The notes beneath the pieces are model-generated. The model was not told the DNA's origin, searched no databases, and saw nothing but the letters and a program-made list of their open reading frames with translations. Positions 34,622 through 53,858 of a stretch of 64,000 nucleotides of DNA are shown here, one piece after another. A program made the position numbers and the translations under genes. Location of the stretch: positions 6,743-70,742 of the IMG/VR virus record IMGVR_UViG_3300011339_000278; one strand, given 5' to 3'. Source of the DNA: a virus. Lineage: Duplodnaviria; Caudoviricetes. How positions within the stretch are numbered: the first letter of the stretch is position 1; every line of letters begins with the position of its first letter.

Positions 34622-34852
34622 ATGTCTGAAATCATTGAACAACCCACCGCAGAACAAATTGCCAAGCATTACTCTGCTTGCATGGACAGCGTAAACCTGA
34701 TAAACGCAGGACAACCAGAAGGCATGACTGCCGAAGACTGGGCTGACTGTGTTGCTCGTAACGTGGCCCACTTGGAAATTATGGTCGCCAAAGACTTCAT
34801 GCAGGGTCAAGACCTTGCTCCGCTGAATGCCGCTATTGCCGCTGGTCAGTAA
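34622..34852 (+). CDS. Putative tail fibre assembly protein
   Basis: 76 aa directly after the fibre gene. Confidence 0.6.
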   Translation: MSEIIEQPTAEQIAKHYSACMDSVNLINAGQPEGMTAEDWADCVARNVAHLEIMVAKDFMQGQDLAPLNAAIAAGQ

Positions 34853-35514
34853 TGTTCTACGTCTACGAGCACATTCGGCTTGACACCAATACCGTCTTTT
34901 ATGTCGGTAAAGGGTGTGGTAGTCGAGTGCGCTCTAAAGACAAGCGTAACAATCACTGGAAAAGTATTGTCGATAAGGCTGGATATGAAGGTCGATTGAT
35001 TGCTGAGTCTAATGATGAAGAGCTTGTATTCCTAGCAGAGCAAGAGCGGATTGACCAGTTGCGTAGGCTTGGTATTAACCTTGCAAACAAAACTGATGGC
35101 GGTTGCGGTGGCACAAAAGGCTACCACCATACAGATGAAGCAAAACGCAAAATATCTGAAAAAGTAAAAGGCAAAATAGGTGGCGAAAAACATCCACGCT
35201 ATGGCCTTTACGGTAAAGATAATCCTATGTATGGTTTTAAACAGTCTGCCGAAGCTAAGCTTGGAATGTCAATCAATTCATCTATGAAACGACCAGAAGT
35301 CGTAGCAAAAATTAGTGGCGAACGTTCTTTACTGGCAAAATCTGTGGAATACCAAGGAAAGGTTTACACAACAATGAATGACCTTGCAAAGCATCTTGGC
35401 ATATCAGGCCAAACCCTTCGTTCACGAATTTTCCGTGGACAATCTGAAAAATACGGTTATAAAGTTCTTGGTAAAACCAAAGACCTTGCCCCCCTGCAAG
35501 CCGCATCAGTTTAA
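34852..35514 (+). CDS. GIY-YIG homing endonuclease with NUMOD3-like motifs
   Basis: FYVYEH...FYVGKG..SR; LAN.TDGG.G; HTDEAKRKIS. Confidence 0.88.
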   Translation: MFYVYEHIRLDTNTVFYVGKGCGSRVRSKDKRNNHWKSIVDKAGYEGRLIAESNDEELVFLAEQERIDQLRRLGINLANKTDGGCGGTKGYHHTDEAKRKISEKVKGKIGGEKHPRYGLYGKDNPMYGFKQSAEAKLGMSINSSMKRPEVVAKISGERSLLAKSVEYQGKVYTTMNDLAKHLGISGQTLRSRIFRGQSEKYGYKVLGKTKDLAPLQAASV

Positions 35515-40496: not shown

Positions 40497-42539
40497 ATGG
40501 CTATTCGTGAACGCCCAAACAACTTTTTCATGGACTTTGAAGACACTGGCTTTGGCGGTAATGCCATGGAGCAGAACGAAGCGTTGGCAAATATTTTTTA
40601 TCCTCCCGCTCCTACGCCTGTAGCTGCCCCTGTTCCAGTGCCAACACCCACTCCAACACCTGCTTCCGTACAAGAGCCTGATTATTACGCGCAACAGTTT
40701 GCTCCTGATATATTTGCGCCTGTAGCTGCGCCTATCGAAAGAGCTCCTATAGCGCCTCCCGTTGAGATTCCCGTTGAACCTCCTCCTGAACTTTTAGCAC
40801 CCCCTGCTGCGCCTCAACCAGCGCCCGTTGGAAAATCCGCAGAAGCGCCTGCGCCCAAAACTGACTATACAGAAGCATTAACAAAACAAATTCTTGGTCA
40901 AGGTCTAACCAGTAAATGGTCTGGTGAAGGGTATGGCTCGGCTGAAAAGAATGCGGCTGATATGGCTAGAATTCTTGCGGGCATTGGTATCACAGACATT
41001 AAACAATTTGGCCCCATAACTAGAGAAGTAAAAAAGGTTGTTGGGTACGAGGATTGGGGTGATCCAATTTATCAGACTGTAACTGAGCAAACCTTTGGCA
41101 ATAAAGAAACGGGGCAAGCCGTTCCCAACACCTATACAGAGCGCCAGACAGGTAATTTTTTTGGTGGAACTTATGCGGGTAAGGGAAACACTGGCTATGG
41201 CGTCCAGTTTGATGCTCAGGGAAACCCAATTTTCTATACGCAAGGCGCGTCTAGTAGTGATATAGGGAAAATTGCGCCTTTGCTAACACTTGCATCGTTT
41301 GTTCCCGGCCTGCAACCTTTTGCTATGGCTGCTAACGCCGCTATTGCCGCGAAGCAGGGCAACCCACTTGGTGTCATTACTAACCTTGCGGGCATGGGTG
41401 GCCTTGCGGGTGTTAGCGGTATGTCTGATGTTGCCAATGCAGCTAGGTTTGCGGGTGCTGTAAAGAGCGGAGATCCGCTTGCCATGCTATTTTCTGGCGC
41501 TAATTTGGCAGGTGTAAGCGACATTGGTGGCGTTAATCTTAGAGATGCTTCTAAAACTATTGGCGCAATTAAAGCTATCGAGAGTGGCGACCCTTTGGCT
41601 CTGTTACCGTATTTGAGCAGCATAGCGCCAAAAGATAGCGGTTTGAGTCCATCAACAGAACCTCCATCGACAGAACCACCTCTTGACCCAGAAGAGCAAG
41701 CACAACTCATAGAAAATAGACTTAACACAGCTATTAGTCGGTCACAAACTCCTATTGACGAAGAAGACGCAAATACGCAAAGAGCAATCAGTGAACTTGA
41801 AAGTCTTTACGGGCCATCGTCAACTACAAGATCTTTTACTGCTGAACCGCAAATAGAAGAAGCTGATGACTTCTTAAAGTCTATCGGTATCAACACACTA
41901 GATAAGCCATCGGATAGTGGCCTGAGCAACGAAGGAATACTTAACCTAATTAACGCTGACAACGAGATGGTTATCACCGGCAAACGCGATACCGTTGGTC
42001 GTGGTATGTCCGAAGACATTCTCAGGAATCTTGAAAATGCAGGTGAACTCCCCTTACCAACTCCAGAGAAAAAGCTTGAAGAGCTAGTGATAAAGGGAGG
42101 CCGTCCTAAAGAAGAAATGACGGTTCAACAAGAACCTACAGGCGTAGACGAATTTATTAAATCACTGCAACCATACATAGCGCCTGCGCCAGCAGAAAAA
42201 CTTCCTGAGCTAGTGATGACAGGCAACCGAGACAAAACACAGGAGCATGTGTTTGACCCAACGTTTGGTGGTACTTTGCCATTACCGGAGCCAGTCACCG
42301 CAACTCCCCCTGCTGCTACACCTAAAGCACCGGCCAAGGCTCCAACAACCTCCGCACGCCCATCAAGTTCATCCAGTATGGATATGATGGGTTTATTAGC
42401 ACTTTTGTATGGACAGCAAGCTCCAGCGCAACAAGCCCCTATGCAAGACCCTTACGCCCATATAAAATTGATGGAAGATTTGTTCGGGTCAGAGATTGAT
42501 TTAACACCCGCCGGTGAAGACACCGCACGAAGGAAATGA
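40497..42539 (+). CDS. Putative DNA-ejection/internal virion protein
   Basis: Pro-rich linkers, hydrophobic Ala/Gly segment, three E-L/M-V-x-x-G-x-R motifs; position before the giant gene. Confidence 0.65.
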   Translation: MAIRERPNNFFMDFEDTGFGGNAMEQNEALANIFYPPAPTPVAAPVPVPTPTPTPASVQEPDYYAQQFAPDIFAPVAAPIERAPIAPPVEIPVEPPPELLAPPAAPQPAPVGKSAEAPAPKTDYTEALTKQILGQGLTSKWSGEGYGSAEKNAADMARILAGIGITDIKQFGPITREVKKVVGYEDWGDPIYQTVTEQTFGNKETGQAVPNTYTERQTGNFFGGTYAGKGNTGYGVQFDAQGNPIFYTQGASSSDIGKIAPLLTLASFVPGLQPFAMAANAAIAAKQGNPLGVITNLAGMGGLAGVSGMSDVANAARFAGAVKSGDPLAMLFSGANLAGVSDIGGVNLRDASKTIGAIKAIESGDPLALLPYLSSIAPKDSGLSPSTEPPSTEPPLDPEEQAQLIENRLNTAISRSQTPIDEEDANTQRAISELESLYGPSSTTRSFTAEPQIEEADDFLKSIGINTLDKPSDSGLSNEGILNLINADNEMVITGKRDTVGRGMSEDILRNLENAGELPLPTPEKKLEELVIKGGRPKEEMTVQQEPTGVDEFIKSLQPYIAPAPAEKLPELVMTGNRDKTQEHVFDPTFGGTLPLPEPVTATPPAATPKAPAKAPTTSARPSSSSSMDMMGLLALLYGQQAPAQQAPMQDPYAHIKLMEDLFGSEIDLTPAGEDTARRK

Positions 42540-42540
42540 T

Positions 42541-45003
42541 ATGACTTTGGATGATTTAATTAATTTAAATACGTTGCCTAGTTCCGGTGGGGATGATGAA
42601 TCTGTGTTTGACCCAACGTATGGTGGCACGCTTCCCCCAGTTATGGGTGGCGGGGGTGAATCTGTATTTGACCCAACTTATGGTGGAACTCTTCCCGGCA
42701 CTGCTGATGCAGGCGGGCTAAGCGGTATCCTAAGATCTTTATTTGGTGACGGCTCGGGCGGGCTAGACCTCCTTAAACTTGGCGCTTTGGGTGGTGGCGT
42801 AGCGGGTCTGCTTGGCGGAAACAAGTCTTCATCTACACCTTCTGGATACCAAGGCGGTATTCCCCGTTACACCGCAACACGAAACATGGTGAACGCTCCT
42901 ACTGCCGGTCGTCGCCCCGGTGCTGGCGGCACTCGTTACGGTGGTGATGTATCTTTTATGCCTCAAGGTTCAGCTTCCGTAGGTGGCGGGCTAGCTTCTT
43001 TGGTAGGCAGAGGTCTTACTGGCGGTAGTCCCGCAACAGACACAGATGGGTCTTCAGTTGCGTTAAGAGACATGATGAAAGCTGTAAACACGCCCCGAAC
43101 ACCGCGTGAATATGATTACCCTGAACCAGTCCGAGGGAACGAAATGCGTTTGCGCAACCCAGCGGGGCCAGTATTAAACGAAGAATCTTATGCAAAACCC
43201 TACGCAGAAGGTGGCATGACTGAAGGTAGATATTTACAAGGTCAAACTGACGGTATGGCTGATGAAATCCCCGCACAAATTGGTGACGATCAACCTGCCG
43301 CACTAAGCCACGGTGAGTTTGTTATTCCTGCGGATGTTGTATCTCACTTGGGTAACGGCAATTCTGATGCAGGTGCACAAAAGTTGTACAGCATGATGGA
43401 CAAAATCCGTGAGGCTCGTACTGGCACAAAAAAGCAAGGTAAAGAGATCAACCCCGATAGTTTTATGCCCGGCGGTTTAGCTAAAGCTTATGCCAATGGC
43501 GGCGCTGTTCAGCGCTTCCAAACTGGTGGTATTTCTGGTGTTGGTACTGCCGCTAACGCAGGTGTGACTGGCACTGAATCCAACCTGTCTAACTGGGCTG
43601 GTGAGTACGTAACAGACATGCTGGGCAAAGGTCGGGCGCTGTCTGAAATGCCGTATCAAGAATACGGTGGCCCTCTAACGGCTGGTGCTTCACCTCTACA
43701 ACAGCAAGCGTTTGGCACTGCGGCTAATTTATCTGTTCCCGGAAGTATTGGCACTGCCGCTCAAACCGCTGGAGATATTGCCAGTAAAGCCCAAGGCATG
43801 ACGTACACACCTTCTGGCGCTCCACAGTACAACCAACTGAGTGCTGGTAATGTGTCGTCTACGTTCCAAGCGCCTGCGCCTTACCAAGCGGCTACATTCG
43901 GCAATCAGTTCCAAGCGCCTACACAAACAGCTGCAACAAACTTTACCAACCAATTTAAAGCGCCTGATCAGTATAAAAATACTGCCTTTACATCTGGCAC
44001 ATTTGGTGGTGAGCAAGCCCAGCAGTACATGAACCCGTACTTGCAGCAGTCACTTAGCCCACAGTTAGCTGAAGCACGTCGTCAGGCTGATATTACCGAG
44101 CAGCAAAACAAAGCGGCTATGACTAAGGCCGGTGCGTTTGGTGGTGGTAGATCGGCTATTTTGACTGCTGAAGGTCAGCGTAACCTTGGTACTAACTTAG
44201 CCAATATCACAGGCAAGGGTTATGACACAGCGTTCCAAAACGCTATGAGTCAGTACAACGCTGACCAAGCCCGTAACATGCAAGCCCAGCAAGCTTCTGA
44301 GCAATCTAAGCAGTTTGGTGCTGGACAGTCTATGACTGCCGCTCAGATGATGGCCCAGTACGGTATGTCTGCACAGCAAGCTCAAGAGGCGGCTCGTCAG
44401 TTCAACCAACAACAAGCTATGACAGGTGCTCAGTCTGCGGCTCAGTATGGTCTTGCAGGACAGCAAGCTGGTGAAGCCTCCCGTCAATTTGGTGCTAACC
44501 TTGGTCTTCAAGGTGCTACAACTGCTGGCGCACAAGGTCTACAGGCGGCTTTGGCTAATCAACAAGCTGGACTTACTGCTGGTCAAGGCAACATCAACGC
44601 CGCTATGGAAGCGGCTAGACAACAAGAACAGTCACGTCAGTTTGGCGCACAGCAAGGTATGGCAGGACTTAACACAGCTTTGTCAGCGGCTCAAACTCAG
44701 GGCAACTTGGGTATCTCTGGCGCTGATCTTGGACTGCGTAACCTGCAACAGCAACTTGCCGCTGGCCAACAAGAACGTGGTATTGAAGCCGAAGGTATCG
44801 CAGCTGATAAAGCAGCGTTTGAAGAAGCTAGGGCAAACCCCTACAAGATGGTTCAGTTCCAACAATCGTTGCTTAGCGGTTTACCATTGGCTGCGCAGAA
44901 CATTAACACCGCTCAACCTAGTACGTTTGCAAATGTGATGACGGGCGCGGGTAGCGTAGCTAGCTTGTTAAATTCTTTGGGTCTTGGCCCTAAAAAACCA
45001 TAA
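42541..45003 (+). CDS. Putative DNA-ejection/pilot protein
   Basis: Gly-rich N-terminus, DGMAD.IPA...LSHGEFV domain, Gln/Ala-rich RQFGA helical repeats; likely ATG at 42541. Confidence 0.7.
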   Translation: MTLDDLINLNTLPSSGGDDESVFDPTYGGTLPPVMGGGGESVFDPTYGGTLPGTADAGGLSGILRSLFGDGSGGLDLLKLGALGGGVAGLLGGNKSSSTPSGYQGGIPRYTATRNMVNAPTAGRRPGAGGTRYGGDVSFMPQGSASVGGGLASLVGRGLTGGSPATDTDGSSVALRDMMKAVNTPRTPREYDYPEPVRGNEMRLRNPAGPVLNEESYAKPYAEGGMTEGRYLQGQTDGMADEIPAQIGDDQPAALSHGEFVIPADVVSHLGNGNSDAGAQKLYSMMDKIREARTGTKKQGKEINPDSFMPGGLAKAYANGGAVQRFQTGGISGVGTAANAGVTGTESNLSNWAGEYVTDMLGKGRALSEMPYQEYGGPLTAGASPLQQQAFGTAANLSVPGSIGTAAQTAGDIASKAQGMTYTPSGAPQYNQLSAGNVSSTFQAPAPYQAATFGNQFQAPTQTAATNFTNQFKAPDQYKNTAFTSGTFGGEQAQQYMNPYLQQSLSPQLAEARRQADITEQQNKAAMTKAGAFGGGRSAILTAEGQRNLGTNLANITGKGYDTAFQNAMSQYNADQARNMQAQQASEQSKQFGAGQSMTAAQMMAQYGMSAQQAQEAARQFNQQQAMTGAQSAAQYGLAGQQAGEASRQFGANLGLQGATTAGAQGLQAALANQQAGLTAGQGNINAAMEAARQQEQSRQFGAQQGMAGLNTALSAAQTQGNLGISGADLGLRNLQQQLAAGQQERGIEAEGIAADKAAFEEARANPYKMVQFQQSLLSGLPLAAQNINTAQPSTFANVMTGAGSVASLLNSLGLGPKKP

Positions 45004-45012
45004 GGGATTGAT

Positions 45013-46833
45013 ATGAACGGCGGAATAGACCAACTTGTAGATACATATAAGGGTAATCCCCAACCCTTGCAGGCTAAGGTGCAGAAGGCACAACAGGGTC
45101 AGCCACCGGGTGAAATCCCTCCTGACTTGGAAGAAGCCATGGCGCTTCAAAAGATCGCTGAGTTGCGTAACAGTGCACAAAGCCAACAAGCTATGCAAGC
45201 GGGCGGTGCTCAACAATCCGTTGTAGAAAAGCTACGTCAGATGTTAGGCGGTATGCAGCAACAAGCGCAGATGGCTCCCCAGATGGCCCAAGCTCCTCAA
45301 CAAGGTCAAATGCAAGGTCAGCCCGTTATGGCGGCGGGTGGTGGCAGTATCGACCAACTTATGTCTAACCTTGGCCAATATTACGCAGGGGGCGGCATTG
45401 TTGCGTTTAACGGTAAAGACCAAAGCAAGGTTCCTACTGAAGAAGAACTTGAAGCCCAACGCAAAGCCGACAGAGAAAAAATTGATGCCCTTGCTAGAAC
45501 ATTGGGACAAACCGGTGGTGAGTACGCTGGTAAAAGTATGGCCGCCCTTGCAGATATTACGAGTTTGATTCCTCGTGGTTTAGCTGGCGCAGCTGATACG
45601 GCACTCATTCGTCCACTGCGTGCATTGGGCGCAAAGGTTGACTATTTAAGCCCCGCGTTAACCCCCGGCAACCAAAGTTCGGACACTATGACTCCGTTCT
45701 ATGATCGGTATATTCGCGCTAAAGAAGGGACTGCTCAAGATAAACCAACTCCGGCTTCAGATGTTCCCCTAGATTCAAAATCAGTACGTGGTGGTCGCAC
45801 CACAATGGCTAACGATCCACGTTTAGGTAAACTTGATGTAACTCCTACAGGTCCCGGCGCTCCAGCCGCGCCTGCTCCAAAACCTCCCGCTGCGCCTCGC
45901 CCACCCACTGCAAACGTTAATGCGCCAGCTGCTCCAGCCGCGCCAGCTAAGCCCGCTACTGAACCTACAAATCCTCTGGAAGCAGCGCTTCAAAAAAGCA
46001 TTATGGAAGCTCTAGCTAAAGACCCAGAAGCTATTCGTAAGAAAGCTATGGAGCAAAACAAAGAATTTATGGGCTTGGATGCGCTGTTAAAACCTGCGCA
46101 GGACCGCGCCTCTGCCCGCGAAGCAAGGATTAAAGAAATCCAAGGTAGCCGTCAACCGCTATGGATTGATGCGTTAATGTCTGCCGGTAAGCCTACCAAA
46201 GGCGGCATTGCAGGTGTTCTTCAGAATATGGCTGTTGGTGCTATATCTGGTAAACAGAACTACGACGCTGAAGACCTTAAGTTTCTTGATGAGCTTAACA
46301 AACTTAACTCCGAGATTGACAAGGCCAGAATTGAAGGTCGTTACAAAGACGTGGCGGCTGGCAAAGAAGCCGTTAAAGATCTTATTGCTGAACAGCGTTC
46401 AGCAGAGCAGTCTGGTACAAGTTTGCTTAATACAAAAGAGAACGCTAGAAGCCGTGAACAGTCTGCAAATATTGCAGCTCAAGCAAGGCGCGATGCTTCA
46501 GCCGCCGCTGCCGCTGCTTCCGCTCAGTCTGCCGCAGCGCAATTAGAAGAAAAAAGATTGCGTCGTCAACAGCAGCAACAACAATTCTTGGCGCAAGAAG
46601 AACGTAAGTGGCAAGATACTTTAAGCAAGAATCCTGACTATAAAAAGTTGGTAGACCAACGCTCCATGCAGGAACGCTTGCTGTATATGTCAACTGATCC
46701 TAAGATACAAGAAAAAGCTCAAGCAGCGGTTGATGCACTAAACGAAAGAATTGCAAAAATGTTGCCCACTGCGGGCGGCGGAACTGTTAATATTCCTCCT
46801 CCACCAAAAGGTGCTGTTACAAGGGTTGGATAA
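45013..46833 (+). CDS. Putative DNA-ejection protein
   Basis: 606 aa helical, Gln/Ala/Pro-rich. Confidence 0.65.
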   Translation: MNGGIDQLVDTYKGNPQPLQAKVQKAQQGQPPGEIPPDLEEAMALQKIAELRNSAQSQQAMQAGGAQQSVVEKLRQMLGGMQQQAQMAPQMAQAPQQGQMQGQPVMAAGGGSIDQLMSNLGQYYAGGGIVAFNGKDQSKVPTEEELEAQRKADREKIDALARTLGQTGGEYAGKSMAALADITSLIPRGLAGAADTALIRPLRALGAKVDYLSPALTPGNQSSDTMTPFYDRYIRAKEGTAQDKPTPASDVPLDSKSVRGGRTTMANDPRLGKLDVTPTGPGAPAAPAPKPPAAPRPPTANVNAPAAPAAPAKPATEPTNPLEAALQKSIMEALAKDPEAIRKKAMEQNKEFMGLDALLKPAQDRASAREARIKEIQGSRQPLWIDALMSAGKPTKGGIAGVLQNMAVGAISGKQNYDAEDLKFLDELNKLNSEIDKARIEGRYKDVAAGKEAVKDLIAEQRSAEQSGTSLLNTKENARSREQSANIAAQARRDASAAAAAASAQSAAAQLEEKRLRRQQQQQQFLAQEERKWQDTLSKNPDYKKLVDQRSMQERLLYMSTDPKIQEKAQAAVDALNERIAKMLPTAGGGTVNIPPPPKGAVTRVG

Positions 46834-49800
46834 TGGCTAAATTTGCTGTAAACGTTGAAGGCGCTAAATACGAAGTTGAAGCGCCGGATGAGAATACAGC
46901 GTGGCAGTGGGCATACACAACCCACATGCAGGGGCAAAGGCCCGCTTCTAAACCTGCCGCGCCTAAGATTCCAGAACGTACTTTTGGTGAAGCATTTACC
47001 GATATTGGTGCTGCTGGTCTTGGCGGTATTGGCAGTCTTGTTCAACTTCCCGGCCAACTCTATGGCCTAGCCACAGGCGACTTCTCTAAGACGGGCGCAT
47101 TGGGCGCTGGTCAAGAACTTGAAGAATATGCAAAAAGCCTAAAGTCGCAGTCACTGCTGGCTCGTGAAAAGGCTCGCTCTGAGAAGGTCGCGCAAGCAGA
47201 AAAAGAAGGTCAACTTGCCGCATTTAAAGCAGCTTTTGGTGAGACTGTTTCTGATCCAGCGCTGTTGACATCATTTTTAGCTGAGCAACTTCCACAGATT
47301 ATCCCTGCCGCTATCACAGGTGGCGGTACAGCCGCGCTTACTTCTGGTAGTGTTCTAGCCAAAGAGCTTGCTAAAGGCACGGCAAAAGAAGCCGCTGAAG
47401 CCGCCGCTAAGAAAGCCGCTATTAAATCTGGTACAACTGCCGCTGTTCAGACTGGTGCAGTGCAACAAGGCGCAGACATTGGCGCTGGCTCATACGACGA
47501 GATCTATGCAGAGTTGTCTAAGAGAATGCCCGCTGAACAAGCTGCGGCTGAGACAATTAATTTAGCCCGTGCTGCTGGTGTTACAGGTTATGGCTTATCT
47601 GTTTTAGCTAATCGTTTCTTGCCCGGTGGCAGTGCGCTTGAACGTGTACTTGCTGGTGAGAAAACAGGCAAGGGTATTATACGTGGCGGTGTTGCTGGTG
47701 CGCTTAAAGAACTTCCAAGCGAGAACGTGGAAGAAGTTGGTGGTCGCCTTGCGCAAAACATTGCGGCCCGCACCGCTGGCCTTGATCGTGACCTAACTTC
47801 AGGCTTAGGCGAAACTGCGGCTATGGCATCAATTGGTGCGGCTGGCATGGGCGGGGTAACTGGCATCGTTGGTGGCCGTCAATCAGATCAACAAATACGT
47901 GATGAAGTATTAAGACAAGAAGCGCTTAAGCAACGCGAAGAGGAACAGCAGAAGCAAGAAGCAGAAACCGCCATCACAGAAGAAGTTAAGACTGAACCTG
48001 AGAAAAAAGGTAAGCCTTCAATTGTTGGCACTGAGTTTGAAGAAGTTGCGCCCGGCACTGTGATTGAAACGCCACCAGTAGACATAGCTGAAGTACAGCG
48101 CGATCCAAAGATCATGGCGATGCAAGCTGAGTATGACAAGCGCGATGCTGAGATCAAAGAGTTAGAGTCGCGTGGCATGAGCCTCACAAAAGGTGAGCAA
48201 AACAAACTTACTAATAAGCGCAATTCAAACGCAAAACTTAAAGTGAGTATTGACGATGCGTTATCCACGATCAGCCCGAAGGGAGCGGAAGATGCTACAG
48301 GAACTCTCGGTGAAACAGCTGGAGCGAGCACTGCGTTATCTACACAACCAGCCGTCATCGTTCCCCCCACCGCAGGAGCTGGAGAAGCTCAACGAAATGG
48401 AGTGGTTTCTACTGGAGCGGATGTTACAGGCACTGCTGAAGGAAAAGGAACAAAGCCCGCTCCAATAGCCACAGAAGCTCAAGTACGCGCGCTTACAGAC
48501 AAAGACTTAAATGACAAGCTAACCGACCAAATGATGTTTGGTGGTGATGATGTTGAATATAAACTTTTAAAAGACGAACAACTACGTCGTAAAACTACTC
48601 AATCAGCAGGAGCACCACTTGGCACTCAAACCCCTCAAGCCCAGCAAACAGAAGCGCAAGGACAAAAACCACCCGCAGCCCCAACAGTAAAGACTGCCAT
48701 CCAAGAAGATGAAGACTTAATCAATAAACTCTTTGGGGATGATGGTCTTCCTTCAGCCGGTTCAGCGCGTCGTACTAAAGCACAAATTGAAAAAGACAAA
48801 CAGGATGCCGCGCAACTTGCCGAACTTGGTCAGCGTTATGGTTTAACGCAACGTGATGGTGAATTACAGCAAGACTTTGGTCAGCGTATCCGTAAAGCTT
48901 ACGCGTTTGAAAAAGAACGCCAAGGCAAACCACTCTCTGCTATGGGTGAGCAGGACATTGCCGGTCAAGAATTAAAAGAAGAACAAGGCTACTTCCCATC
49001 ACAAGAAGAACGTGACTTGTATGAAGAAACTCGTCAAGACTACAACTCTAAGCTTGAAAAAGGCGAAGAGCCGCTACCCGCTTATAAAGAACTAGGCAAT
49101 GATGAACGCCTTGTTTATTTCCGCGACAACATTAAACGAAATGATCAAACAGAACACGATAGAGCGGTTAAAGATTTAGCTGACTATCGCGAGTCACAAA
49201 AAAGCGAAGTTGAAACATACCAAGTACGTGACAAAAAAACGAATGAACCTCTGTTTAATGAAGACGGAACTCCATTAATGGTTAAAGCTCCGTTTGTGGG
49301 CGAGACCAAAGCGCGTAGAAGTTACAACCAACAACGTAGCGCATTCAGTCAAAAGACTGGGCTTTCGTATGAGTTTCCTATTTGGGGCGATTTGTCTACA
49401 GAAGCTCGTAAAGCCTACGCAGCTTTTAACAAAAAAGATTCTCCTCTTGAGTTAGACATGGCGTTCCGTGCCGTAAAGAAACAAATTCAAAAAGATCTAT
49501 CGGAACAAACTTCGCGTGAAGGTTTGCAAGCCGCGGAAAGCCGTGCAACACAAGAAATGCTTGCCGCTGGTGAACGTGCGCGTAAATCACAACCTGCTGG
49601 TAAAGGGCAGGTGCTGCCGCTTGATATTCTGAAGAAGCTTGCGCGGGGTGACATTAAATCTGTACTGGAGTATTTGAGTACACAAGGGCATGGTCTGAAG
49701 CTTAAGCGCGGCTACGATCTAGTACCGTTTACAGGAGTTAATGGTAAGACGGTTTTGCGGCGTGGCGTTGTTAATATTCGTGATTCAGTTGCAATGGGCG

Positions 49801-52800
49801 TTTTCCGCACATTGGCTGGTACTTTATCCAACATTGCCGACCTCAAAGTAAATGTTGTGTTCGATAAGAACATGATACATGAGCAAATTGCCAAGTACGA
49901 CGCCAACACAAATACTTTGTATGTTGGTCCATACGGTTTGGATGAAGCTACGATCTTGCACGAGCTAACCCATGCCGCTACTGTAAAGATCATTCATCAG
50001 TTCTTCACTGATAAAACAAAACTTGACCCGCGTGTAGCGGCGTCTGTTGAACGCCTGATTGATATTGCCAGCGCCGCCAAAGCCAAGCTCGGCAGTAAGT
50101 ACCCCAATGCGTTTGACAACCTGTACGAGTTCATTGCTTATGCGATGACTGATATGGAGTTCCAGAACGAACTAGCTGGTATTCAGATTCCTCGTCTAGC
50201 GTACGCTACGGCAAAGACGCAAGAGCAGTCTGAAGAATTGCAGCTTGAGCGTGAGACCGGTGTGCGCGAAGGCTCGTATGACAGCATGTTTGATAACCTG
50301 TGGGATTACTTCACAGGCACTCTTGCGTTCATGTACAAGTTGTTCCGTCCAGAACAAACGCGCCAAAAGATTTTAATGCCAACTGAGAAGACCGGCACTC
50401 CTCAGAAAGCTACCAAAGAAAAGACTATTGCACCAAGAGAGCAAAAAGAAAAACGAGAGTTGGATCTCGCCGAAAAAGAAGCGCTTGCGCCTGAGTCTTT
50501 GTTTGACAGTCCTGAAGAAGCTGATGTAGCTGAAATTCCTCCGCTGAAGGGTGAATTGGTCAACGAGCGTGGCGTAACAAACCTACGCCGTGAAATTCTA
50601 CGTTCCCCCGGTTATAAAGGTAACTTGCTGTTAGAAGCTGCCGCAGCTTTCCAAAATATTCTTGCCGCACCTGAAGGTGGTATTGAGCGCCTTGCCGGTA
50701 AAGAAACAATTGGTGAAGCAGCTGAGTTGTCTGCAAAAGCCAAAGAAGCCGCTGGCACTACACAAAAACCAACCACACAAAAAGCTCCAGCTAAAGTTGA
50801 CGTTACTACAGAAGAAGCGATCAAACGTAATGAACTGCCTGAGACAAGCGGTATTAATGCGTTGCGCAAACTGTTCACAACACGTCAAGGTGGTATGAAC
50901 TTGGTGACTAAGTTTCAAAATGCTCGTTATGCGATCAAGAGCTGGGAAGATGGTTTGACCCGTGCCGGTAAGATTATTTATAGCGGAAGCAAACTAAACA
51001 ACATCTATACGCAGATTGCCTTAGCCGCTTCTCGCGCCAAAGACTTGTACCTGACCAGAGTCAATACTCCTGCAAGTGATATGCAGAGTGCCATCGGTGC
51101 GTATGCCGAGGCTTCTGGTTTGACTTCTAAAGAAGCGACCGAGCGTTTACATGTATACCTGATGGGTCTGCACGAGGGTGAACGTCGTGATGTGAAGTAC
51201 ATGTTGAACGTGCCACTGAGCAACGACAAGATTTTGAAGATTGGTAATGAAATCTTAAGTCCCGCTGAGTTCCGTGAGCGCATCATGGATGAAGTGTTGT
51301 CTGGCACATTAAACAAGACTCAGATTGAAACTGCCCGCACTGCATTAGATAATGTTGTGGCTAAGTACAAAGACCCAACCGGTTCAAGCCCAAATGGTTA
51401 TAAATCTGTTGATCGTAACAACGAAGAATACAACGTCATCGGTGGTTACACACCCAAGTCCATTCAGAACTTCCGCGACTCTTATGAAAATGATCCTAAC
51501 AAAAAGGAAGTAGACAAAGTTATTGCCGCTATGCGCAAGTTGCAAGATGCAACAAGAGAGTTAAACAAAGAGGCTAACTACTGGTCAGCGCCCGTGCAAA
51601 GTATTGTGGACTTTTACGGCTGGAAAAACTATGTGCCTTTTGCCGGTAAAGAAAAGTACACCAACGATGCTGATGCCGCGCTTGATTTTAACAGCAAACG
51701 CAATGGTCGTGAACTGCAAGAAGGTCAGAACTCTTTTGAAGGTCGTGAAACTGACTCCGATAACTCTATTGTTCAATCGTTGACTGATGCAACGCGTGCC
51801 GCTATGCGTGCTGGTCGTAGGGATGTGACGCTTGCAATTAAAAACGCTGTGGCTAAAGATAAAGATGGCAATCAATTACTCAAAGGTCGTATCTTCAAAA
51901 CAATTCCATTTGCAGATCGTTACAAAGACCTGAACATTGGCGAAGAGAAGAAAGAAAACGTCATTTTCCATTACAACAAGGATGGCAGTATTGATGTGAT
52001 TGAGATTTTTGATAAGGCGCAACGTAACGCTATTCGCCGCACGTACGAGCAGTCTCAACCAATCATTGATATGCTGAACCACATCACTAGCGGTGTGGGT
52101 CAAATGCACACTCGTTACAACATTGCGTTTGCGCCAGTTAACTTCTTCCGTGATGCTCTGACTAACGCATACTCAATTGGTGTTGAGATGGGTCCAAAAG
52201 CTTCGGCGCAATACCTTGGTGCTATTGCTACAAATGTAGCAAGCGGTGGCTTGTTCCGTGCCGCCAAAGTTGCCGCGCTGTATGAGGCAGGTAAGTTTGA
52301 CCAAATCAGAGCGATGGCTAAGAAGAATGATTATGTACGCGACATGCTTGAGTTCATTGAGCAGGGCGGCAAAGTGTCATATCTTGCTGGTCTTTCTTCT
52401 AAGGGTCAGTTTAAAGAATTGCAGAAGTCGCTTGACCGTACCGGCATCTTGAAGACTAAGGACCAGATCGACAAGTTTGTTGACATCTACACTGATATGT
52501 TTGAATTGGCAAGCCGCACTGCGGCGTATCGTGTTGCCAAGTCACAGGCATTGGCAGAAAATCTTTCCCCTGCTGATGCACAAGTCAAAGCCGCTGGTTA
52601 CGCTAAAGGTCTTGCCAACTTTGAACAGGTTGGTGAGTGGGGCCGTGCCGCTGGTGCGGCGTTCATGTTCTTCCGTCCAGCCGCTACTGGCGCTGTCAGG
52701 GCTATTGAAACATTAGGCCCAATGCTACGTGATCCACAAGAAGCTTTAAAAGAACTACCTGAGTACATTCAAAAAGACAAAGTGGCTAGCGCTGAGTTCT

Positions 52801-53858
52801 TGAAAAAATACAACGAGCAAAAGAAGGCCGCTACTGCAATGACCTTGGGCTTGCTTGGCATGGGCAGTGCAATCTATCTGATGTCTATGGCATTGTCTGA
52901 CGATGATGATCTAGGTCGCAACCGCTCCGCTATTGATGATCCAAACCGCTGGTCACGCTATGCCCGCTTCCATATTCCCGGAATGGACACACCAATCCAA
53001 ATTCCTTGGGGTTTTGGCCTTGGCGCATTTGCATCCGCTGGCGCACAGGTTACAGCGTTGGCTACAGGCAACTCATCCGTTAAGAATGCTCTGAGCAATA
53101 TCGTTGTGACAGGCTTGGATTCGTTCTTGCCGCTGCCGGTCTCGCGCATTAGTCCGATAGACAACTTCCCAGCATGGGCGATGGATTCTGCAACGCCTTC
53201 CGTTGCGCGTCCGTTCCTTGAGTGGGTGATGAACGTTGATGGTCTGGGTCGTGAGATCTATAACAACCGTCAGTCACGCTACGGCGATGCTTACACAGGT
53301 GGCGACAACATCCCTGAGTTGTATAAGTCTGCCGCACGTACTTTGGCTGAAATCACAGACGGCAAGGTGGACTGGAGTCCAAACACAATGTACTTCTTCG
53401 CCAATAACTACGGCGATGGACTGATGCGTTTGGCTCAAACTGGATATAACTACGGTCTGCTGGCGGCTGGTGAAAAGGCATTCAATCCTAAGACTGATAC
53501 CGTGCTGTTTGATAGCTTCTTTGGCGCACCGTCAAACTACGATGCACGGCAGTTCTCAGAGGTTGAGAAACAGATTTTGTCTAAACAACAAAAACTCAAC
53601 ATGTTTAAGGATTCAAACCCAGAAGCGTATGCCCGATACGTTGAGAAGAATCCAATGGACGAATACATAGTTGAGCACTACAACAAAGTAATCAACCAAG
53701 ACTTGAAAAAGTTGCGGGAAGAGGCAAACATTTACCGCCGTATGCCGGGCCTAACTCCCAAAGAACGCACGGAAGCTGTTAAGAATGTTGTCAAGTTCCA
53801 GAACTTAGTCAAGCGTGGGATCATAGAAGACTTTGAAATGATGGGTGTTGAACCCTAA
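46833..53858 (+). CDS. Giant internal virion/ejection protein (large polyvalent-type) with HExxH module and LPD38-like C-terminus
   Basis: 2341 aa; Gly/Ala-rich N-terminus; HELTH at 49959-49973; C-terminal membrane-like region. Confidence 0.8.
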   Translation: MAKFAVNVEGAKYEVEAPDENTAWQWAYTTHMQGQRPASKPAAPKIPERTFGEAFTDIGAAGLGGIGSLVQLPGQLYGLATGDFSKTGALGAGQELEEYAKSLKSQSLLAREKARSEKVAQAEKEGQLAAFKAAFGETVSDPALLTSFLAEQLPQIIPAAITGGGTAALTSGSVLAKELAKGTAKEAAEAAAKKAAIKSGTTAAVQTGAVQQGADIGAGSYDEIYAELSKRMPAEQAAAETINLARAAGVTGYGLSVLANRFLPGGSALERVLAGEKTGKGIIRGGVAGALKELPSENVEEVGGRLAQNIAARTAGLDRDLTSGLGETAAMASIGAAGMGGVTGIVGGRQSDQQIRDEVLRQEALKQREEEQQKQEAETAITEEVKTEPEKKGKPSIVGTEFEEVAPGTVIETPPVDIAEVQRDPKIMAMQAEYDKRDAEIKELESRGMSLTKGEQNKLTNKRNSNAKLKVSIDDALSTISPKGAEDATGTLGETAGASTALSTQPAVIVPPTAGAGEAQRNGVVSTGADVTGTAEGKGTKPAPIATEAQVRALTDKDLNDKLTDQMMFGGDDVEYKLLKDEQLRRKTTQSAGAPLGTQTPQAQQTEAQGQKPPAAPTVKTAIQEDEDLINKLFGDDGLPSAGSARRTKAQIEKDKQDAAQLAELGQRYGLTQRDGELQQDFGQRIRKAYAFEKERQGKPLSAMGEQDIAGQELKEEQGYFPSQEERDLYEETRQDYNSKLEKGEEPLPAYKELGNDERLVYFRDNIKRNDQTEHDRAVKDLADYRESQKSEVETYQVRDKKTNEPLFNEDGTPLMVKAPFVGETKARRSYNQQRSAFSQKTGLSYEFPIWGDLSTEARKAYAAFNKKDSPLELDMAFRAVKKQIQKDLSEQTSREGLQAAESRATQEMLAAGERARKSQPAGKGQVLPLDILKKLARGDIKSVLEYLSTQGHGLKLKRGYDLVPFTGVNGKTVLRRGVVNIRDSVAMGVFRTLAGTLSNIADLKVNVVFDKNMIHEQIAKYDANTNTLYVGPYGLDEATILHELTHAATVKIIHQFFTDKTKLDPRVAASVERLIDIASAAKAKLGSKYPNAFDNLYEFIAYAMTDMEFQNELAGIQIPRLAYATAKTQEQSEELQLERETGVREGSYDSMFDNLWDYFTGTLAFMYKLFRPEQTRQKILMPTEKTGTPQKATKEKTIAPREQKEKRELDLAEKEALAPESLFDSPEEADVAEIPPLKGELVNERGVTNLRREILRSPGYKGNLLLEAAAAFQNILAAPEGGIERLAGKETIGEAAELSAKAKEAAGTTQKPTTQKAPAKVDVTTEEAIKRNELPETSGINALRKLFTTRQGGMNLVTKFQNARYAIKSWEDGLTRAGKIIYSGSKLNNIYTQIALAASRAKDLYLTRVNTPASDMQSAIGAYAEASGLTSKEATERLHVYLMGLHEGERRDVKYMLNVPLSNDKILKIGNEILSPAEFRERIMDEVLSGTLNKTQIETARTALDNVVAKYKDPTGSSPNGYKSVDRNNEEYNVIGGYTPKSIQNFRDSYENDPNKKEVDKVIAAMRKLQDATRELNKEANYWSAPVQSIVDFYGWKNYVPFAGKEKYTNDADAALDFNSKRNGRELQEGQNSFEGRETDSDNSIVQSLTDATRAAMRAGRRDVTLAIKNAVAKDKDGNQLLKGRIFKTIPFADRYKDLNIGEEKKENVIFHYNKDGSIDVIEIFDKAQRNAIRRTYEQSQPIIDMLNHITSGVGQMHTRYNIAFAPVNFFRDALTNAYSIGVEMGPKASAQYLGAIATNVASGGLFRAAKVAALYEAGKFDQIRAMAKKNDYVRDMLEFIEQGGKVSYLAGLSSKGQFKELQKSLDRTGILKTKDQIDKFVDIYTDMFELASRTAAYRVAKSQALAENLSPADAQVKAAGYAKGLANFEQVGEWGRAAGAAFMFFRPAATGAVRAIETLGPMLRDPQEALKELPEYIQKDKVASAEFLKKYNEQKKAATAMTLGLLGMGSAIYLMSMALSDDDDLGRNRSAIDDPNRWSRYARFHIPGMDTPIQIPWGFGLGAFASAGAQVTALATGNSSVKNALSNIVVTGLDSFLPLPVSRISPIDNFPAWAMDSATPSVARPFLEWVMNVDGLGREIYNNRQSRYGDAYTGGDNIPELYKSAARTLAEITDGKVDWSPNTMYFFANNYGDGLMRLAQTGYNYGLLAAGEKAFNPKTDTVLFDSFFGAPSNYDARQFSEVEKQILSKQQKLNMFKDSNPEAYARYVEKNPMDEYIVEHYNKVINQDLKKLREEANIYRRMPGLTPKERTEAVKNVVKFQNLVKRGIIEDFEMMGVEP
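48292..48468 (+). CDS. Candidate overprinted 58-aa gene in +1 frame of giant gene
   Basis: AAGGGAG SD 6-7 nt before ATG; amphipathic helical product; host frame is low-complexity here. Confidence 0.5.
   Translation: MLQELSVKQLERALRYLHNQPSSFPPPQELEKLNEMEWFLLERMLQALLKEKEQSPLQ

Follow-up and report, generated by a model that had tools for sequence, protein, structure and literature searches.

A TonB-box-like peptide array in a predicted disordered region of a protein encoded among the particle genes of an uncultured freshwater phage

Three copies of a short peptide that statistically matches the TonB box, by which bacteria couple outer-membrane transporters to their energy motor, were found in a 680-aa protein of an uncultured freshwater phage. 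The copies lie in an acidic region predicted to be disordered, and the phage may use the host motor during entry, although this is inferred from sequence alone. The window analysed here is a 64-kb stretch, bases 6743-70742 of a 70,742-bp IMG/VR virus record rated complete (IMGVR_UViG_3300011339_000278). An earlier note had described NEMVITGKR, LEELVIKGGR and LPELVMTGNR as TonB-box-like motifs in a putative DNA-ejection protein and had proposed that this protein may engage host TonB-ExbBD to energise channel extension or genome entry. The observation was confirmed, the peptides being found at the stated positions by translation of window positions 41901-42290 (+). The proposed interpretation is supported only in part, in that the likeness to TonB boxes is strongly supported at the level of sequence while the function remains an inference.

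Gene context and protein architecture

All three peptides are encoded by one ORF, at residues 489-497, 527-536 and 569-578. The features of the locus, all on the plus strand, are as follows:

40497..42539 (+), 680-aa ORF carrying the motifs, a virion-module protein by gene position and a probable internal (ejected) protein of a podovirus-like phage
40602..40856 (+), Pro-rich N-terminal spacer (residues 36-120)
40857..41246 (+), the only confidently folded domain in the predicted model (residues about 121-250)
41271..41534 (+), hydrophobic Ala/Gly-rich segment (residues 259-346), a candidate membrane-inserting region
41961..41987 (+), box 1, NEMVITGKR
42075..42104 (+), box 2, LEELVIKGGR
42201..42230 (+), box 3, LPELVMTGNR
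42249..42281 (+), second short linear motif, VFDPTFGGTLP, directly after box 3
42375..42536 (+), conserved C-terminal tail (GMDMMGLLALL...MQDPYAHIKLMEDLFGS...)
42604..42696 (+), two copies of the second motif (VFDPTYGGTLP) at the N-terminus of the next ORF (42514-45003, 829 aa)

The ORF lies at the end of the structural module. Terminase, portal, a Mu-gpT-like capsid, a 968-aa tail spike, a lysozyme, a 707-aa virion structural protein and a 291-aa fibre-like protein are encoded upstream, and low-complexity proteins of 829, 606 and 2341 aa downstream, the last with an LPD38 domain and an HExxH motif. No tail tube, sheath or tape measure was found. The nearest cultured relatives by portal are short-tailed phages of Pelagibacter, Roseobacter, Planktothrix/Synechococcus and Caulobacter, all with Gram-negative envelopes. 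The phage encodes no TonB of its own. No tRNAs were found, the GC content is 48%, and the portal relatives infect varied hosts, which is not enough to name a host.

The description of the protein in the earlier note also held. The 40-aa blocks around the motifs have a net charge of -2 to -5, the Pro-rich spacer is real (29 Pro in residues 41-120), and the Ala/Gly segment contains three 19-aa windows with Kyte-Doolittle values of 1.2-1.4. AlphaFold2 with a 57-sequence alignment gave pLDDT values below 50 and coil for residues 487-510, 514-548 and 561-594, where the motifs lie. The Pro-rich spacer was predicted as low-confidence coil, and the Ala/Gly segment as helices at low to medium confidence. 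For most of residues 121-250 the pLDDT was 79-93 (61-65 in three 10-residue blocks), with two helices and a beta-sheet. This domain is the most conserved part of the family and contains the invariant residues Q131 to S253.

Searches with the AlphaFold2 model against PDB, BFVD and the ESM Atlas gave no significant structural match. No Pfam family was found in the protein, which is therefore not a fragment of a TonB-dependent transporter with Plug domain and 22-strand barrel. The only family match was a weak one to phrog_790 (E 5e-5; 21 of 57 homologues, best 2e-6). A tblastn search against cultured phages returned only one uncultured spring-water phage. The designation as an ejection protein is thus an inference from gene position and composition. 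In its position at the end of the structural module, its large size, low complexity and hydrophobic segments, and in neighbours of the same kind, including a giant polyvalent protein, the protein resembles the internal core proteins of the T7 gp14/gp15/gp16 type, but no sequence or fold homology to them was detectable.

Conservation of the motif in homologues

At least 567 homologues were found in metagenomes, none of them named. Among the 120 best, the motif recurs as (K/D)-L-x-E-L-V-(I/V/M)-T-G-(N/D)-R-(D/P)-K. Information content is 2-4 bits at ten consecutive positions, the island ELV(I/V/M)TG(N/D)R(D/P)K, against about 1 bit in the flanks. A matrix built from the motifs of the homologues hit only the three sites in all six frames of the window, box 1 with 41 bits, and in 65 related viral loci it hit only the homologous ORF. 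Of the 120 homologues, 61 carry 1-7 copies above the 99th percentile of shuffled sequences, whereas 59 have none. Neighbouring copies are 26-42 aa apart and lie at 60-87% of the protein length. Lack of conservation in homologues, named beforehand as grounds for rejection, was thus not observed within the clade of this phage. Box 1 is conserved as ADNEM(V/I)ITG(N/K)RDT, and boxes of homologues include KLSELVVTGDRPK. The modules end in a few recurring tails, namely RDTVGRG..., RPKEEMTVQQEP..., RDKTQEHVFDPTFGGTLP and REPKYLPTDDDFMPTP. The C-terminal tail of the protein is conserved among the box-bearing homologues.

This pattern is the signature of a short linear motif in a disordered region. As about half of the family lacks boxes, they are an accessory module and not the core function of the family. 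Box-bearing loci cluster at 47-49% GC and box-less ones mostly at 42-46%, which fits a clade-specific module, perhaps tied to a host group. A search of IMG/VR for exact L-x-ELVVTG(D/N)R gave six in-frame hits within long ORFs, all of them homologues of this protein, and one further in-frame hit in an unrelated 96-aa ORF that looks like chance. The motif was therefore not demonstrated in unrelated phage families.

The regular spacing and the conserved linker classes could also be explained by structural repeats, in which each hydrophobic strand folds only on oligomerisation, for example into a beta-rich wall of a trans-envelope conduit, and the likeness to TonB boxes is a by-product of strand-forming composition. 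Ejection proteins of podoviruses such as T7 gp14-16 do refold into channels. However, AlphaFold2 found no repeat fold, the linkers are Pro-rich, acidic and prone to insertions and deletions, and the copy number varies from 0 to 7 without loss of the gene. In addition, conservation extends to non-structural details shared with TonB boxes, namely Glu before the strand, Thr-Gly after it and Arg two residues later. This explanation is considered unlikely.

Processing or chaperone sites are considered very unlikely. Many copies contain L-x-E directly before the hydrophobic core, as in (L/I)-x-E cleavage sites of a prohead protease, and the variant ERLVITG resembles the DnaK model peptide NRLLLTG, which is named in PDB titles. 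No prohead protease was found among the head genes with Pfam or PHROGs, however, the strongest conservation lies after the Glu and not at L-x-E, and several copies lack L-x-E (DNE, GGE, NRVE). The conserved acidic flank is unfavourable for DnaK, and the DnaK rows in the Foldseek search concerned the folded domain and were not significant (E at least 0.08).

Sequence comparison with bacterial TonB boxes

For comparison with genuine TonB boxes, 134 Plug-domain matches were located in five bacterial genomes (Undibacterium, another betaproteobacterium, a Porticoccaceae, Phenylobacterium and a Cyclobacteriaceae), and 48 transporter ORFs were extracted from them. A matrix built only from the phage motifs (positions -2 to +8) was moved along each whole ORF. 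The single best window fell 12-27 aa upstream of the Plug domain, which is the TonB-box position, in 28 of 48 ORFs, while the null expectation is 7.4% (binomial p 8e-20).

In the reciprocal test, a matrix was derived de novo from 37 TonB boxes within the 40 residues upstream of Plug, without phage input, and gave x-(L/V)-x-(E/T)-V-(V/I)-(V/I)-T-(G/A)-x-R. Among all 77,968 stop-free windows in the six frames of the phage window, box 2 ranked first with 14.2 bits and box 3 second with 11.6 bits, and the next hit scored 9.8 bits. Real boxes scored a median of 13.4 bits in leave-one-out, with an interquartile range of 10.0-18.6 bits, within which boxes 2 and 3 both lie. Box 2 thus corresponds to the 59th percentile of real boxes, and no background window reached its score. 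Box 3 corresponds to the 38th percentile, with a background rate of 3.5e-5. Although box 1 is a clear member of the phage motif family, it scored only 1.4 bits, the 8th percentile of real boxes, and is a weak match. Boxes of homologues such as KLSELVVTGDRP reached 22 bits.

Exact matches were also found in transporters. A DNA pattern scan of bacterial genomes, in which the first codon of the pattern was out of frame (T at codon position 1 of residue -2, with Leu/Phe allowed at +1), gave 63 hits, about what chance predicts. Nevertheless, three of them are Pfam-confirmed Bacteroidota transporters that use LEELVVTGDR or LNELVVTGNR, containing the octapeptide ELVVTG(D/N)R of the homologues, as their TonB box 10-25 aa upstream of Plug. 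Phenylobacterium transporters have IEELVVTGLRAEP and VSELVVTGGLE in that position. In 401 genomes sampled from the class of the Phenylobacterium genome (taken to be Alphaproteobacteria), the exact phage octapeptide ELV[V/I/M]TG[D/N]R was not found in-frame in a transporter, and only one out-of-context hit was obtained. Exact matching is too strict for a degenerate motif, but the resemblance is therefore to the consensus and not to one identified host. Some homologues carry the variants NRVEIVGNR or xLEIVGNR, which resemble the QRVEITGSSIKR boxes abundant in Undibacterium.

Possible role in phage entry

The analysis itself establishes that the motifs exist, that they are conserved as 10-residue islands in a region predicted to be disordered, that their copy number varies, and that they are statistically equivalent in sequence to the TonB boxes of bacterial TonB-dependent transporters, with box 1 as a weak case. 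Everything beyond this is inferred, including the location in the virion, ejection, exposure in the periplasm, binding of TonB and the energising of entry. In the favoured view, the protein would be packed in the head and leave it through the tail after adsorption. The Ala/Gly-rich segment would insert in a membrane, and the acidic C-terminal region would be exposed in the periplasm. The C-terminal domain of host TonB would bind a box by beta-strand augmentation, as it does with transporters, group B colicins and S-pyocins, and the ExbBD-TonB motor, driven by the proton-motive force, would pull on or anchor the protein. This would help to draw the remaining ejection proteins, and possibly the DNA, through the outer membrane, or hold the conduit on the inner membrane, and several boxes 26-42 aa apart would allow repeated, hand-over-hand engagement. 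Real engagement of TonB is considered about as likely as not. The position in the virion module of a podovirus lineage whose cultured relatives infect Gram-negative hosts and the lack of a TonB encoded by the phage are consistent with this view, but a hydrophobic beta-strand flanked by charges is a generic docking element. A cultured lead is Caulobacter phage RW (host C. vibrioides CB15), in which gp066c is related to the neighbouring 829-aa protein and carries PVDEIVVTPSQP and PVDELVIKPPTT.

A stronger form of this model, which is possible but doubtful, is an entry ratchet in which the motor grips the boxes of an injected array one after another and reels in the ejection proteins, and with them the leading end of the genome, across the outer membrane. 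This would also explain how a motor with a stroke of roughly 50-60 residues could move long polypeptides.

In TonB-dependent transporters such as BtuB, FhuA and FepA (Plug PF07715 plus TonB_dep_Rec), the box has the same pattern (hydrophobic, any residue, Glu/Thr, then (V/L/I)(V/I)(V/I)-T-(G/A)-x-R) and also sits in a flexible stretch, but there it is single and N-terminal and precedes a plug by about 15 aa. In the phage protein, three copies lie at residues 489-578 of 680, and box-bearing homologues have 1-7. This internal, multi-copy arrangement and the absence of boxes from about half of the family are points against a simple reading of the motifs as functional TonB boxes. Group B colicins, S-type pyocins and klebicin C display their own TonB box in an intrinsically disordered region and are pulled across the outer membrane by TonB-ExbBD (PMC12927319). 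Their box is single and near the N-terminus, and they thread through a transporter or TolC, whereas the phage protein would arrive through the phage tail. No homology to bacteriocin domains was found. In filamentous Ff phages, the g3p N1 domain binds TolA domain III by beta-strand augmentation during entry, and 'some bacteriophages' parasitise Ton (PMC7391070). g3p N1 is, however, a folded domain that targets TolA, and the phage type differs from a tailed dsDNA phage. Infection by the tailed phages T1, phi80 and H8 depends on the Ton system, which is attributed to the TonB box of the receptor (FhuA, FepA).

In full-text literature searches no paper was found that places a TonB box in a phage virion or ejection protein. 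Use of the Ton motor by a displayed box is established for bacteriocins and use of TolA for filamentous phages, but no description of either was found for a virion protein of a tailed phage. If the boxes bind TonB, they would provide a concrete, testable energy source for the passage of ejection proteins and DNA of short-tailed phages through the Gram-negative envelope, the energising of which is still largely unknown. They would also be a natural multi-box substrate for studying how TonB moves long polypeptides, which is named as an open question in the bacteriocin review (PMC12927319), and a sequence signature that could help to predict hosts, because a box should match the boxes of the host. 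The finding also shows that the putative ejection proteins of this lineage are built from interchangeable short linear motifs.

A second motif and other possible partners

The main alternative is that the motifs are beta-strand docking peptides for a partner other than TonB. This could be a phage component, such as the portal, the head interior or another ejection protein, in which case the motif would be an assembly or packaging address tag, or another periplasmic protein that accepts strands by augmentation, such as TolA domain III. TolA accepts a strand from TolB in the same way that TonB accepts a TonB box (PMC7391070), and the homologue variants xLEIVGNR and NRVEIVGNR loosely resemble, by eye, the IEIxG N-terminus of TolB that binds TolA. 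However, the TolB N-termini of three genomes scored only -9 to -56 on the phage matrix, and resemblance to the TolA box (x-L-x-I-E-I-x-G at the mature N-terminus of TolB) was not confirmed. The ELVVTGxR motif is moreover confined to one protein and not shared among neighbours, and it matches TonB boxes with very high specificity in both directions. This alternative is possible but considered less likely than TonB.

In favour of a docking tag is the second motif, VFDPT(F/Y)GGT(L/M)P, which is shared by this protein and the next one, as expected of a tag read by a common partner. It is present in 62 of 120 homologues, including box-less ones. Its occurrence at the N-terminus of the downstream ORF was also seen in the viral loci L005, L006, L010 and L016.

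Other motifs and neighboring genes

A second, nearly invariant motif of 11 residues, (E)xVFDPT(F/Y)GGT(L/M)P, was found in the protein carrying the TonB-box-like motifs (boxes) and in the protein encoded next to it, at the following positions of the window:
42249-42281, the copy following box 3
42604-42636, first copy at the N-terminus of the next protein (829 aa)
42664-42696, second copy at the N-terminus of the 829-aa protein

The motif was also seen in the downstream ORFs of the related viral loci L005, L006, L010 and L016. It was present in 62 of 120 homologues, including those of the clade without boxes, and it may be a shared tag on consecutive putative ejection proteins. A third recurring tail, (R/K)EP(K/Q)YLPTDDDFMPTP, followed some of the boxes in the homologues P0013, P0030, P0037 and P0044 and in the related loci L005, L009 and L012. 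By eye, the acidic DDDF core of this tail recalls the C-terminal tail of SSB.

The 829-aa protein (window 42514-45003) contains a conserved block at residues about 223-321 (...LSHGEFVIPADVVSHLGNGNSDAGAQKLYSMMDKIR...), which is shared with gp066c of the cultured Caulobacter phage RW (MK929790.1; 20433-22175, minus strand, of locus L191). No Pfam or PHROG family was found for this block, and it may mark a widespread ejection-protein domain of this podovirus lineage. The 580-aa protein gp066c is related to the 829-aa protein with an E value of 3e-8 over about 100 aa. It starts with a similar V-x-DP-x-x-G motif, which is followed by a Gly/Ala-rich segment and then by PVDEIVVTPSQP, TVDPVVVNPPQG and PVDELVIKPPTT in Pro-rich linkers. 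These strands resemble TonB boxes more weakly and occur in a phage of a tractable host.

Two further genes of the window were identified:
34852-35514, a homing-endonuclease-like gene (phrog_314) between the tail-spike gene and the lysis/late genes
46833-53858, a gene for a giant virion-module protein of 2341 aa

The 2341-aa protein has an LPD38 domain at residues 2036-2211, and an HELTH zincin-like motif is present in the stretch that matches phrog_2206. It looks like a polyvalent injected protein.
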